Below, in pieces: positions 28,500-55,549 of a stretch of DNA of 64,000 nt. The stretch covers positions 32,001-96,000 of the forward strand of contig JBHLRS010000009.1 of assembly GCA_048882325.1 (NCBI GenBank). The letters run 5' to 3'. A program made the position numbers and the translations under genes. The notes under the pieces were generated by a model. That model saw only the letters and a list, made by a program, of their open reading frames with translations. It had not been told where the DNA came from and made no database searches. Source of the DNA: Candidatus Thorarchaeota archaeon (GTDB taxonomy: Archaea; Asgardarchaeota; Thorarchaeia; Thorarchaeales; Thorarchaeaceae). Each line of letters starts with the position of its first letter. The stretch's first letter is position 1.

Positions 28500-28576
28500 G
28501 CGACCGTGGTCTAGCCTGGTTAGGACGGAAGCCTCCCAAGCTTCCAAGCCGGGTTCAAATCCCGGCGGTCGCACCA
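28500..28576 (+). tRNA. tRNA-Gly(CCC), no intron, CCA encoded
   Basis: GCGACCG/CGGTCGC; GAAGC-CT-CCC-AA-GCTTC; CCGGG-TTCAAAT-CCCGG. Confidence 0.96.
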
Positions 28577-31180: not shown

Positions 31181-32315
31181 TAATCTCATGAATAACATCA
31201 AGATGAGTACTTCTTACTCTCCTTTTTGAAACTCCTGTGAGAGAAGATAGGGCGCTACGAACCTCAGACTGTTTGTCGCGTTTTCTATTCCCTTGCCAAA
31301 CTAATAATGGCCATGTGGGTTGTGAATACTTAACTCGCCGGAATGGTGATTCAGATCGACTCATTGCCACTCCCAGTGAAAGGAAATCGTAAAAGTATGC
31401 AAGAAGTTTCCAGTTCTGGTCTCTCATAATTCTTCCAAGCGTCATATCAGCAAGAGAGAGCTGTTCAAACCCCTCATCCAGTTCTTTTGGAGTTAAAAGA
31501 TGAAGATGAAGGTTCTCTTCTAGCCATAGCACCAATGAATCGTGGTTAAGCTCAGATTCAGATACTGCTCTTTTTGCCATTTTAGAATCAGCTGATGCAA
31601 ACAGATGCCAGAGTGTTTCTTCTGTTCCTCTTTTTGAATCTCTAAAGACTGTCTCTATTGCTGAAGATGTCAAACCACTTCTTACATGTGACTCCAAATC
31701 AGAGATTGCAGCACGCAGGTCACCTCCAGAACCTTCGATAATCTCATCCAGAACGTCACTTGAAACATCCGCCTTGTTTTCAGATAATATGCGTTTCAAG
31801 ACCTTTTCCATGTCGTCGTTATCGATAAGACCGAAATTGAAGACTTGACATACCTTCATCAAGTCCTTGAGACGTGGACTGTTCGGATCATTTGCAGTCA
31901 TCACAATCGGATGAACTGTATCTTTGATCACCTTCAAGATTGCACCAACGCCACCTCTGTCGCTAGTCCCAGAGAGACCATCAACTTCATCAAGCAGTAT
32001 AATTCGTGGTCTGCCATCAAGAGTTTGTTGAGATACGGCTCGCCAAACAAGTGTTTCAATACTATCCTTGTTCCTTTTATCACTCGAATTGAATTCTACA
32101 AGTTCCATATTCATTTCATTTGCTAATGCGCCTACTGACGCTGTCTTTCCTGTTCCTGGAGGACCAATTAGGAGTGCTGCTCTCTTACTCGGTATCTGTG
32201 ATGACCATGATTTAACCCATGTTTTGAGTGATGTCAGAGTTTCTTGATTTCCAACAAGACTGTCCGTTTTTTTCGGACGATGTTTCTCGGGCCAAGGTAG
32301 ACTTTCGTTGGTCAT
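31095..32315 (-). CDS. rfcL: replication factor C large subunit
   Basis: PWPEKHRP, GPPGTGKT, EFNSSDKR, LDEVD, GDLRAAI. Confidence 0.93.
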   Translation of the reverse strand: MTNESLPWPEKHRPKKTDSLVGNQETLTSLKTWVKSWSSQIPSKRAALLIGPPGTGKTASVGALANEMNMELVEFNSSDKRNKDSIETLVWRAVSQQTLDGRPRIILLDEVDGLSGTSDRGGVGAILKVIKDTVHPIVMTANDPNSPRLKDLMKVCQVFNFGLIDNDDMEKVLKRILSENKADVSSDVLDEIIEGSGGDLRAAISDLESHVRSGLTSSAIETVFRDSKRGTEETLWHLFASADSKMAKRAVSESELNHDSLVLWLEENLHLHLLTPKELDEGFEQLSLADMTLGRIMRDQNWKLLAYFYDFLSLGVAMSRSESPFRRVKYSQPTWPLLVWQGNRKRDKQSEVRSALSSLTGVSKRRVRSTHLDVIHEIIKINPKSLSDFAAWLNVEKSSLVQKRNH

Positions 32316-51343: not shown

Positions 51344-52622
51344 CTACCAGTCAATCAGATTCCCTGCAGCAACTGCAACCTGACCAATAGAAATCCCTCC
51401 ATCACCTAGAGGAACATCTCTGTGGATAAGGGGTATGAGATCATCTCTACTGACGTGATTTACCACAGCTCGTGTGATGATTCTGTTAAGTGCAACACCA
51501 CCAGAGAAACCAACATGCTGAACCTGATTCTCTTTAGCCACCTTACACGCAATATATGCCAAAGCTTCTCCCAAGTACCACTGTGCAGCATAGGCTATCT
51601 CATGTTCGCTAACACATTGTTCCTTTAACTCATGGACCTGCATCAAACCATGTGAGGTATCCAAGTTCAGTCCATCCCTTGATTTTATGAATCTAGGCTT
51701 GATCTGTTTCTTAGTAGGTTTCGCAAAAGCCTCGAGCTTCATAGGACATTCTCTATCATAGGAATTCATTGAACTTATTCCGAGAACTATAGCTACAGCA
51801 TCAAGGAACCTTCCAGCGCTTGTACTGTTCATCACACCAATCTGACGATTGATTGAATCAATTAGAATACTCAATATGTCAGATGTAATTCGGGTATCAG
51901 GCGCGATAGGCACTGATTCAATAACTCTGAGGAGGAGGTCATTTCTCTCTAGTGAGTTACCCAAATAGCTATTCAGAATCCCAATCGCAGACCTGGCAGC
52001 AAAAACAGCAGAGAGATCTCCACTTGGATAATCTACACCTTTAAGACCGCCAACTTTCTTGAAGTCTCTTAGACCACCAATCAATACTTCTTCTCCCCAT
52101 CCGTTACTGTCCATGCCAAACCCATACTCGTCAACTGTAATACAAACAATACTTGTATCACATAGCAATTTGCGGTCCACATGCTGCACATGAGGTGAAT
52201 GGGTAACGATACCATCGTGACTTTGAGTCTGTTAAGTCATGAATACAATAAACACACATTGCAATGTCTGACTGTAAAACAGGAATCGCTCCCTCTGTTC
52301 TCTTGTCCGAAGACATCTGTATCTCGAAGAATGTGAAGGAATCCGTGACATCTGTCCAATCAACGGTCAATGAATCAATGCGCGATATTGATGGAGGATT
52401 GTTCTTTATACTTTCAATCAGATCATTGATTCCTGTTTCTTCTCCTTCTGCTACAATCTTTACTCCTGCATCATCCAAGTTGAGAACAAATCCAGTGAGT
52501 GAGAACGAATCAGCAACATTGTAGACAAATGGTCTAAATCCAACTCCTTGGACTATCCCTGCTACATGAATCTCAGCTCTTTTCCTCACTGGCCATGACA
52601 CCTTTGATTTTTCCGTGATCAT
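51344..52622 (-). pseudogene. hypF: hypF carbamoyltransferase pseudogene (two out-of-frame fragments, large internal deletion)
   Basis: GIVQGVGFRPFV plus the first Zn finger ends at CAACGPQ. The second fragment has a degenerate DG.G.G.DG..WGGE motif, then TSAGRFLDA, SGGV, GDGGISIGQ. Confidence 0.85.
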
Positions 52623-52740
52623 TTCCGATATTAATTCGTTGAAGTGGCTGAACCTATCCTGTATTACAAGAAATACCAGTACCATGCCTGCTCTTTGTAG
52701 GTCCTCTTAAGGTCCATGTAGGAAAAAGGTTTGAGCTGCT

Positions 52741-53353: not shown

Positions 53354-53902
53354 TTGGGACCTGAGAACACTAAACAAGTTGGAGAAAAAACACGTATGAA
53401 ACAGTTGACATCTGGAGCTCGACAGGTACTGAAAGAACCAATTCTGAAGAAGCTCCAAGAAGGTTCAGTACTGAGCGAGGCACAGATAGAAACATTGCTC
53501 ATTGATTTAGTGGTAGAGGATGGATATGGGGTCCATATCACATATGAGGACAAAGCCGCATATCGGTCAAGACAAGGGAGTAGATCTCGAGGTGTTTCAA
53601 GAGGAGCATTCAATAGAACTCTGAAACAAGCCAGACGAAATCTGTCTCGTTGTCTTTACACTATGTTACTTCTCGCATACTTGGGTCTCTTTGAACTCAC
53701 AATATTCCGACCATTCGAAGAGGTTGCAGCTCGGATAGGTGACTATCGAAGAATCCGTGACATTCTTGCTGGAAAGACTGAGTTGACTACAGAAGAACTG
53801 GAGAGTGTCAGAACGACTGAACGAATTATCATGTCAGCACTAGATGAATTATCATCCTCACTTGCACTGAAATCTGAGATATCAAAGAAGAAGTCGGACT
53901 GA
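53354..53902 (+). CDS. HTH-containing protein (sigma-70 region 4 / HTH_10-like)
   Basis: LSEAQIETL...GVSRGAFNRTLKQARRNL. Confidence 0.65.
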   Translation: MGPENTKQVGEKTRMKQLTSGARQVLKEPILKKLQEGSVLSEAQIETLLIDLVVEDGYGVHITYEDKAAYRSRQGSRSRGVSRGAFNRTLKQARRNLSRCLYTMLLLAYLGLFELTIFRPFEEVAARIGDYRRIRDILAGKTELTTEELESVRTTERIIMSALDELSSSLALKSEISKKKSD

Positions 53903-53914
53903 TCGGATAAAGAA

Positions 53915-54110
53915 AAGAAAATGGCTCGAGCGTGTCGCACCGGAAGGATTCCGACGCAATTTGAGCACAGTCGTTCTCCAGCACTCAAGCAACCATTAGG
54001 TCATCCTGGAGGTTTGTTTGAGGAGATAGAGATGACAATGACGAGCGCCTGAAACGTCGGAGAGATGTGTCCAGTCGACGTCGGCCTTCTTGCCATTGTA
54101 CGACACACTC
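53915..54110 (-). ncRNA. unclassified ~185-nt rod-shaped RNA
   Basis: 13-bp end-to-end helix GAGTGTGTCGTAC/GTGCGACACGCTC, six further nested helices with G-U pairs, then a U-rich tract. Confidence 0.72.
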
Positions 54111-54295
54111 ATATTTTACATGGTAACAATGATACATAGTTCTAATCTTAGAACGAACTTTTTACCAGATTTTTCTTCGAAATTTGGCGCGTTTGATACA
54201 TGTAATACAACGAATACAATTCTCAATATCCCACGAAACCTTAACCGTAATCACATATGCACTAACACAATATACAGCTACAGAAGTGATTTTAC

Positions 54296-55549
54296 TTGAC
54301 TGACGAGAATACCCGCGATAGGATTTTCAGAGCAGTCAAGGAACGCATCAAGGAAACCGATGAGCAAGACAGAATACAGATGATAACCAACGCAATTGGG
54401 GATCGACGATATAGAGACCTTGTTGACATCGTTGCAAGGATTGAGGGTGAAAGTGACTGGCCCACAGCACTTGAGTATCTGATGAAGGCACAAGATAAGA
54501 AGTATTCCTCACCTATGACTATTGGTCAAGACAAGACAAGTTTGGAAGCGCTGAAATATAGGGAGATGATATTCGAGCTGCTATCCTGTCGCGGATTAGA
54601 GCCTGTCCCAATATCAATGACCAATCTTCTCACAAGCTTGAAAAACGAACCTTCACTTGTTGCTGCATCACGAGTTCTTTTGACCAAGCTAGAAGAAATG
54701 ACTATAAAGCAGATTGAAGCTGGCGATACCCTGTTCTTTGATTTCTCTGAGAACGTATCTATTTCTCAAGAAGTTGTAAACCTACTAGATCAAACTAGAA
54801 AAGAGAACATCCAAAACATCTCCATAAATCAAAACGGAAATCTATTCAATGTGGCTCCTCTCTGGCACAGTGAGTATGGTCGGCTTGCCATGTCTAATCT
54901 GGGGATTAAGGGGAATATTGTGGATTCCGACACATTCGATAGTGTATTATCAGTATTACAAGTATCCTCTATCATCAAAACAAGAACCGTGAACGTTCCT
55001 CTGCCTAGGAACATGAATGAGGATTCGTGGACTCGTCCCACAAACCAATCCTATAGAAAACTTCACTCTCATCTGATACATCATGAAGTGAACGACCTGA
55101 AGCTCTCGGCAAGCCGACACTCGATACCACTACTCAATGCACTTCTCAACGAAGCACTATCCACTTACGATAATGAATCATCCACTAACAAGTATAGGAA
55201 CATACTCGATTATATCAATGCACACATCTCGGTTCGTGACATAGAATCCCTACTTGCTTTGGAGAAAGCATCACGAATGAAGAACGTACGTATCGCAACT
55301 GCAGCAATCCTAGCTATTGGCAATTTTTATAATGAATCATCAGTCGCAACGCTGTTGAACCTCTTTTGTGCTGGAAGAGATGATGCGATAATTCAATCAA
55401 CTTCAAAAGCTATTGAGAATGTGTACAAGAAATGTCCAGAAGCAGATCATGCAATTTCCATTTCAGTGGATTCTGAATGCAGAAACCGTGGTACACTAAA
55501 GAAACTCTACAGACGTCTTAGCAAGGAAAAACCAGTGTATTACCGGTAG
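54296..55549 (+). CDS. helical protein with C-terminal HEAT-like repeats
   Basis: VRIATAAILAIGNF...SVATLLNL...IIQSTSKAIENV. Confidence 0.6.
   Translation: MTDENTRDRIFRAVKERIKETDEQDRIQMITNAIGDRRYRDLVDIVARIEGESDWPTALEYLMKAQDKKYSSPMTIGQDKTSLEALKYREMIFELLSCRGLEPVPISMTNLLTSLKNEPSLVAASRVLLTKLEEMTIKQIEAGDTLFFDFSENVSISQEVVNLLDQTRKENIQNISINQNGNLFNVAPLWHSEYGRLAMSNLGIKGNIVDSDTFDSVLSVLQVSSIIKTRTVNVPLPRNMNEDSWTRPTNQSYRKLHSHLIHHEVNDLKLSASRHSIPLLNALLNEALSTYDNESSTNKYRNILDYINAHISVRDIESLLALEKASRMKNVRIATAAILAIGNFYNESSVATLLNLFCAGRDDAIIQSTSKAIENVYKKCPEADHAISISVDSECRNRGTLKKLYRRLSKEKPVYYR

Follow-up and report, generated by a model that had tools for sequence, protein, structure and literature searches.

The 64,000-nt window analysed in this study (positions 32,001 to 96,000 of contig JBHLRS010000009.1 from the Candidatus Thorarchaeota archaeon assembly GCA_048882325.1) was shown to carry a stand-alone, single-copy gene for a structured non-coding RNA (ncRNA) of about 190-200 nt, which is specific to the Asgard family Thorarchaeaceae. 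The gene occupies a 390-bp gap between the plus-strand open reading frames (ORFs) 53354-53902 and 54296-55549 and is encoded on the minus strand. The original prediction of a novel structured ncRNA of about 190 nt on this strand, selected at the RNA level, was confirmed by the lack of a matching Rfam family and by strong covariation among homologues. With Rfam 15 at the gathering score, the sole match in the window was the tRNA at 28500-28573. At E <= 10, the region 53700-54400 gave three weak matches, none on the strand of the RNA, and only snoR35 (12 bits, plus strand) touched its 3' end. A full-text literature search found no paper describing either a Thorarchaeota ncRNA family or this ~190-nt RNA, which constitutes a real structured ncRNA family of Thorarchaeaceae without an earlier description.

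The minus strand of 53905-54115 was folded by ViennaRNA into a single unbranched imperfect hairpin with a minimum free energy (MFE) of -70.8 kcal/mol (z = -3.65), and none of 200 dinucleotide shuffles folded as well. The plus strand of the same segment folded more weakly (-67.4 kcal/mol, z = -2.73). The helices listed in the original prediction are present at their coordinates on the minus strand; in the MFE structure, the register UGG/CCG plus AAG/CUU replaces GAAGG/CCTTC, and the remaining helices agree. Internal loops in the MFE and consensus structures measure only 1-5 nt, and the sole large unpaired region is the apical one. The RNA and its parts are as follows.

53923..54111, minus strand: the RNA, 189 nt, from 5' UGAGUGUGUCGU to GCUCGAGCC; delimited by covariance-model matches spanning model positions 1-189, by the sharp start and stop of sequence conservation, by the fold and by covariation.
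54098..54111, minus strand: closing stem, 5' strand, UGAGUGUGUCGUAC; helix 1 of 14 pairs, with 97.8% of cells paired, compensatory changes at 7 pairs and a nearly invariant sequence.
53927..53940, minus strand: closing stem, 3' strand, GUGCGACACGCUCG, followed by the unpaired tail AGCC; from the fold and covariation.
54030..54036, minus strand: apical stem, 5' strand, GUCAUCU; helix 10, with 91.6% of cells paired.
54007..54029, minus strand: apical loop, CUAUCUCCUCAAACAAACCUCCA, 23 nt, without G in this genome; contains CUCCUC and ACCUCC, where motif 1, (U)CUAUCUCCUC, is invariant and motif 2, ACCUCC, is mostly retained.
54000..54006, minus strand: apical stem, 3' strand, GGAUGAC; from the fold and covariation.
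54053..54082, minus strand: alternative 7-bp local hairpin in the 5' arm, pairing GACGUCG (54082-54076) with CGACGUU (54059-54053).

The orientation of the gene was determined from the covariance-model score (190-203 bits on the minus strand against 32-37 bits on the plus strand), the promoter motif and the T-run described below. G-U pairs, from which the strand had been fixed originally, matter less. The 3' end of the RNA probably lies a few U beyond 53923.

Homologues fold into the same shape without the aid of an alignment. In the genus of the source genome, 20 of 23 sequences individually form the same unbranched hairpin, as do 7/7 sequences of a second genus with arms of unrelated sequence; overall, 39 of 52 homologues yield a single hairpin despite diverged arms. 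In an alignment of 37 sequences, fitted to a model built from 11 close sequences, 89.2% of cells were paired versus 28-42% for slid partners, and 41 of 64 pairs showed changes on both sides. Extension to 52 sequences from 15 genera gave 87.7% paired cells versus 30-42% in slid controls and compensatory changes, including G-U intermediates, at 51 of 64 pairs; these values were reached by none of 500 shuffles. The alignments used for covariation are model-fitted and thus favour the structure, and the signal is considered real because of the alignment-free folds and the slid controls.

Only three places are conserved in sequence, as distinct from pairing, namely the closing stem, the apical stem-loop and a short UCAU that precedes it. 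In the stalk between the closing stem and the apical hairpin, pairing is retained and the sequence is free to change. In the homologues of 142-159 nt found in other genera, the 3' arm is shorter and the 5' arm bears a side hairpin, so the RNA is not a pure rod everywhere. The local hairpin at 54053..54082 competes with the rod helix CCGACGU/GCGUCGG; within the genus, it pairs in 91.3% of cells and three of its seven pairs covary (MAFFT alignment A1, not structure-fitted). It may represent a switch or overlapping constraints.

The aligned homologous loci show a sharp onset of conservation about 45 nt upstream of the hairpin and an end in a T-run just past it. Three elements flank the RNA in these regions.

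54139..54154, minus strand: palindromic promoter/operator element, GTTCTAAGATTAGAAC, at -44 to -29 from the RNA 5' end.
54131..54138, minus strand: TATA-like box, TATGTATC, at -27 to -20, conserved directly beside the palindrome.
53909..53921, minus strand: oligo-T tract, UUUUCUUUUCUUU (run TTTTCTTTTCTTT), read as an archaeal terminator.

Across homologous loci, the 16-bp palindrome (54154-54139) reads GTTCTA(A/G)GATTAGAAC, the GTTCTARGATTAGAAC form, and is invariant in about 15 genera save for a few single-base variants, with a constant distance to UGAG. It was found once in the source genome; outside Thorarchaeaceae, all occurrences carried one mismatch, were about as frequent as in the controls and lay in coding sequence or in unrelated surroundings. 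Approximately 19 variable bases separate TATGTATC from the invariant 5' UGAGUGUGUCGU, with the same spacing in about 15 genera. The sequences CTTTTTATC and CTTTTATC occupy the corresponding position in the RNase P RNA and tRNA genes of this genome. From this matching placement and the fixed spacing, we infer that TATGTATC is a weak TATA box, that the palindrome is a factor-binding site in the upstream or transcription factor B recognition element (BRE) position, and that transcription starts at 54111/54110. The palindrome is probably an activator site. At the other end, a T-run comes after GAGCC(A/G) and follows the 3' end in nearly all homologues, except for two distant loci without a clear run. 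Archaeal RNA polymerase terminates at oligo-T, and the tract would therefore act as a terminator.

Four genera of Thorarchaeaceae have a second copy of the palindrome, GTTCTAAGA(T/A/G)TAGAAC, right behind the stop codon of a winged helix-turn-helix regulator gene and ahead of a gene for a secreted protein (L149:3032-3047, L150:2954-2969; also L133, L135 and L136). At locus L132, the spacing and the following TGAGTGTGTC mirror the arrangement at the RNA gene. The regulator was assigned to ArsR/HTH_20 by Pfam at the two loci checked, and its tail looks membrane-anchored. Its orthologue in the source genome (C3:42880-43350) is followed by a degenerate AGTCTAAAATGAGATC. This membrane-anchored ArsR/HTH_20 protein is a candidate for the palindrome-binding factor, and the product of the neighbouring 182-aa gene (window 53354-53902) is another. 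Upstream of the palindrome at the RNA gene, the motif (A)GCGCCAAAT (window 54182-54190, minus strand GCGCCAAAT) is kept within the genus in the divergent intergenic region and may belong to the promoter of the 417-aa gene.

Sequence words of the stretch are contained, as a small share, in seven RNA-labelled runs from different studies. Four RNA runs were mapped (marine sediment, wetland, estuary and a further metagenome), and the sole contigs obtained, 151-163 nt long and 90-97% identical, lie on 53897-54095; being assembled sequences of relatives, they show presence in RNA libraries rather than strand, ends or level. The flanking genes yielded no RNA-library contig in these four studies (901-nt stretch), which the 85% identity cut-off applied to relatives may partly explain. 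The T-run contains the end point (53915) of one metatranscriptome fragment, which is flanked by adapter sequence on both sides.

The metagenome-assembled genome (MAG) that carries the window (3.6 Mb, 93% complete) contains one copy of the element. With model R2, exactly one copy was found in 68 of 87 Thorarchaeia genomes, covering 15 of the 17 genera of one family, and the single genome of the sister family had none. With model R3, the element was present in 23 of 26 genomes of Thorarchaeaceae and in none of 125 genomes from 26 other Asgard families. The gene order acetyl-CoA synthetase, 417-aa gene, RNA, 182-aa gene, 138-aa gene and hypF is kept across genera. In genus g26, the 417-aa gene, the RNA and the 182-aa gene remain together with swapped flanks; genus g15 has lost the 417-aa gene but retains the RNA gene, in inverted orientation at the same place. 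Since the RNA is single-copy, family-wide and strongly structured, occurs in the metatranscriptomes of several studies, and has an invariant loop and a dedicated promoter, it bears the marks of an important cellular component rather than of a sporadic regulator. The covariance model can be used for the annotation of Thorarchaeota genomes.

The core of the apical loop, UCUAUCUCCUC (11 letters), does not differ in any of the 52 sequences. In most of them, a second motif, (A/U)ACCUCC, lies 8-16 nt away, in the forms AACCUCC (22), UACCUCC (5), CUUCC (10), CCUCU (3) and CCUCA (3), with none in 6; the variants CUUCC and CCUCU could still pair with GGAGG via G-U. The linker differs in length between homologues and frequently includes G. 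The loop of this genome is free of G and holds both CUCCUC and ACCUCC, and the T-run follows the hairpin, exactly as was noted originally, but the absence of G is not a conserved property, as 35 of 52 homologues have G in the linker (MFE loops, four of these without the apical stem formed).

The anti-Shine-Dalgarno (anti-SD) likeness of the loop motifs, which had been pointed out for this sequence, was also verified, the first motif UCUAUCUCCUC being the invariant one. The 3' end of Thorarchaeota 16S rRNA is GGAUCACCUCCU; compared with 16S AUCACCUC, motif 1 (AUCUCCUC) matches AUCNCCUC of the tail, and motif 2 (ACCUCC) is the anti-SD core. Both unpaired pyrimidine motifs (ACCUCC and AUCUCCUC) are complementary to the SD consensus of the organism, in whose genome the SD-type motifs GGAGG, GAGGTG and AGGTGA are enriched 4-9 times at -18 to -3 before crude gene starts. 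The mean pairing energy between the loop and start regions was -7.3 kcal/mol, at least as good as that of the 16S tail (-6.6).

These features suggest that the RNA most likely acts in trans through its loop, and the leading reading, to which we give a probability of about 0.35, is that of a trans-acting mimic of the anti-SD or 16S tail. According to this reading, the RNA would be transcribed from the minus strand by a dedicated promoter, consisting of the palindrome with the weak TATA-like box directly downstream, and would end at the oligo-T. The RNA has two sequence-invariant ends, namely a closing stem joining the 5' and 3' termini and an apical hairpin showing UCUAUCUCCUC and usually a second AYYUCC motif. 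The loop, imitating the 3' tail of 16S rRNA, would bind GGAG-type purine tracts, that is, the SD sites of mRNAs, or else a factor that normally reads the 16S tail, and translation initiation would be modulated as a result. If so, this would be a new way of controlling translation initiation in archaea. The RNA, which is easy to synthesise, offers a concrete target for pull-downs, structure probing and in vitro translation.

Several results weigh against the anti-SD mimic. Full GGAGG occurs in a minority of genes only. The loop pairs with start regions at -7.32 kcal/mol versus -6.65 kcal/mol for internal regions, and 24 of 60 composition-matched shuffled loops do as well on start regions, where the real loop is not better than these shuffles; any CU-rich loop would therefore seem anti-SD-like, and the proposal is one of sequence resemblance. 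The originally suggested targeting of ribosome-binding sites (RBSs) may apply, with the resemblance to the anti-SD as its basis. The exact complement GAGGAGATAG(AG) has 29 matches against ~6 expected by composition, almost all of them within coding sequence (E-E-I-E codons), and neither a single conserved target nor a conserved non-coding partner for it was found in the genome. Moreover, invariance over 11-14 nt exceeds what an SD interaction needs, and a ~60-bp stalk with an invariant closing stem looks unusual for base-pairing small RNAs (sRNAs) and more like protein-binding sites. The strict order-invariance of these 11-14 nt, together with the invariant closing stem, fits a protein-recognised RNA about equally well.

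Searches of the 16S and 23S rRNAs and their flanks returned only promiscuous CU/GA-rich duplexes with the loop and nothing specific: the loop core reached -16 to -18 kcal/mol on rRNA versus a shuffle mean of -14.4 ± 1.5 on 23S, and the full loop -22.3 kcal/mol on the 16S GGAGGAAGGUGGGG tract. At loci L140-L143, the spacer that directly follows the 16S 3' end (CCUCCU) can be folded into a small hairpin, N-CAUCU-(loop)-AGAUG-N, and the resemblance of its stem letters to the apical stem of the RNA (CAUCU/GGAUG) may be a coincidence.

An almost equally probable alternative is that the RNA serves as a scaffold or decoy of a lineage-specific ribonucleoprotein (RNP) without any link to SD sites. One or more proteins would read the two AYYUCC loop motifs and the closing stem sequence-specifically, and the RNA would sequester, deliver or organise them, by a logic like that of Y RNA, 6S, CsrB or signal recognition particle (SRP) RNA. 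Such a role agrees with the two separate invariant modules joined by a stalk conserved in pairing only, with the two similar motifs 8-16 nt apart within one loop, with a letter order that is invariant although shuffles pair with start regions equally, and with the lack of a conserved RNA partner in the genome, 16S or 23S. The protein evidence speaks against it, as no candidate partner emerged. TROVE/Ro (PF05731) was not detected in the 93%-complete source genome, with matches in control genomes, and no Piwi domain was found there; the search for La matched neither this genome nor any control genome and so proves little. The neighbouring genes encode DNA-binding-type and HEAT-repeat proteins lacking an RNA-binding signature, and the 182-aa family is distributed more widely than the RNA. 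An unlikely further reading is a Thorarchaeaceae RNP whose RNA mimics the 16S tail and would be for the small subunit what 6S RNA is for RNA polymerase, titrating a tail-reading factor (of initiation or 16S maturation) or competing globally for SD sites, and switched on by a dedicated palindrome-binding transcription factor. No known prokaryotes are more closely related to eukaryotes than the Asgard archaea. A 16S-tail decoy RNP, if real, would contain the first RNA of archaea to be described as a global translation decoy, and it would come from the lineage nearest to eukaryotes.

It is very unlikely that the locus is a cis or antisense element, acting by convergent overlap with read-through of the 182-aa gene, or that the palindrome and promoter serve chiefly in the regulation of the divergent 417-aa gene, the RNA being a by-product. 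The block of the 417-aa gene, RNA and 182-aa gene is indeed intact in nearly all genera, even in g26 with its rearranged flanks, but a promoter, a terminator and a structure under selection belong to the RNA itself, it overlaps neither coding region, genus g15 keeps the inverted RNA gene after the loss of the 417-aa gene, and the metatranscriptome contigs fall on the RNA and none on its flanks. We see next to no chance that the transcript is a small-protein mRNA, as in the original suggestion of a type I toxin-like fold-back mRNA for a 31-aa ORF (54096-54001). Both the window and close relatives do have an ORF that begins with ATG. Of the 52 homologues, however, just 20 retain this start codon, the ORF varies in length between 9 and 49 aa, different genera read through the invariant loop in different frames (all three occur: VISISS, HLYLLK and SLSPQ), and substitutions track base pairing, not codons. 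Hardly credible, too, is an inverted repeat acting at the DNA level, such as a miniature inverted-repeat transposable element (MITE), a recombination site or an origin-associated hairpin. Long and imperfect inverted repetition is what such an element would display; against it, each of the 68 genomes with the RNA holds one copy, at one and the same syntenic position, one strand is strongly preferred by both the G-U pairs and the model score, the compensatory changes pass through G-U intermediates, a promoter and a T-run flank the element, and it is present in RNA libraries. A MITE or transposon repeat was likewise rejected on the single copy per genome and the lack of dispersed copies.

The anti-SD mimic would have its nearest functional counterparts among sRNAs with C-rich loops that reportedly mask SD sites, namely RsaE/RoxS of Firmicutes, the hairpins of S. 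aureus RNAIII and, in archaea, the RBS-targeting sRNA41 of Methanosarcina. Shared features are invariant unpaired pyrimidine-rich motifs, complementary to GGAG-type RBSs and present in two copies in hairpin loops, and a trans-encoded gene with its own promoter and terminator. This is a functional class, not a homology family, and the Thorarchaeaceae RNA has no sequence or Rfam relationship to it. In contrast to its members, the Asgard RNA has a ~60-bp stalk joining the 5' and 3' ends, an invariant closing stem and an 11-nt invariant core, and the putative target pairing of its loop is no better than that of shuffled loops.

Like Y RNA/YrlA with Ro60, the RNA joins its termini in a conserved stem, has a pyrimidine-rich loop at the opposite end and carries oligo-U at its 3' end. 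However, the Thorarchaeaceae RNA is about twice as long, has no tRNA-like module and no Rfam Y_RNA match, and no TROVE/Ro60 gene was found, which speaks against the Y-RNA membership considered originally. With 6S RNA, it shares a length of ~185-190 nt and a rod with a closing stem, and it would likewise be a decoy mimicking the nucleic-acid ligand of a core machine. The proposed 6S-like architecture did not hold, as 6S RNA has a large central bubble mimicking an open promoter, whereas the only large single-stranded part here is the apical loop; 6S RNA is also bacterial, and no 6S family was matched. Archaeal SRP (7S) RNA is also a long helical rod whose two ends both carry functional sites, with a single gene copy and a housekeeping-like distribution, but the Thorarchaeaceae RNA lacks the Alu and S-domain helices and has no Rfam match at its locus.

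The SRP and RNase P RNAs were located elsewhere in the genome. The archaeal SRP RNA model (RF01857) matches C25:45216-45362 and not the RNA locus; this match (50.5 bits, model positions 112-260) lies on G000 contig C25, whose end appears to truncate it. The archaeal RNase P RNA (RF00373) matches C3:141896-142234 with 164.6 bits. A miRNA-like Argonaute precursor was rejected, since no Piwi was found and the conservation is reversed, with an invariant loop and varying arms. An exact match to the loop pattern in a bacterial MAG (L041), with no promoter and no stems, was attributed to chance.

The 182-aa neighbour (p182, window 53354-53902, plus strand) is predicted to bind DNA and bears the label UPF0251-like in one source; its family is wider than the range of the RNA. 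On the European Nucleotide Archive metagenome contig L151 (1516-5915), a p182 homologue with 41% identity lies between acetyl-CoA synthetase and hypF with gaps of 93 and 50 nt. In this lineage, the neighbourhood is the same without the RNA, the 417-aa gene and the 138-aa gene, and there is no room for the RNA, which suggests that these three genes were inserted at this place in Thorarchaeaceae. The 417-aa protein (window 54296-55549, plus strand) was found only in Thorarchaeota. Its AlphaFold model has a predicted local distance difference test (pLDDT) score of 91; the C-terminal ~150 aa are HEAT/ARM-like with generic matches only, and the N-terminal ~250 aa gave no clear match among solved structures in Foldseek. 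Both neighbours were rejected as partners of the RNA, being proteins of the DNA-binding and HEAT-repeat types with no RNA-binding signature and no functional link.

Within the conserved 182-aa gene, the antisense segment 53807-53858 (minus strand) gave a sub-threshold match to the C/D-box sRNA-like Rfam family sR5 (15.3 bits, the gathering score being 40); its C, D', C' and D boxes can be recognised, and the match is probably due to chance. The hypF gene of the window (51344-52685, minus strand) looks split and shortened: a 175-aa ORF (acylphosphatase and zf-HYPF) overlaps a 281-aa ORF (HypF_C_2), making ~450 aa in total without the YrdC-like middle domain. The distant relative (L151:3564-5915) encodes an intact HypF of 783 aa with all domains.
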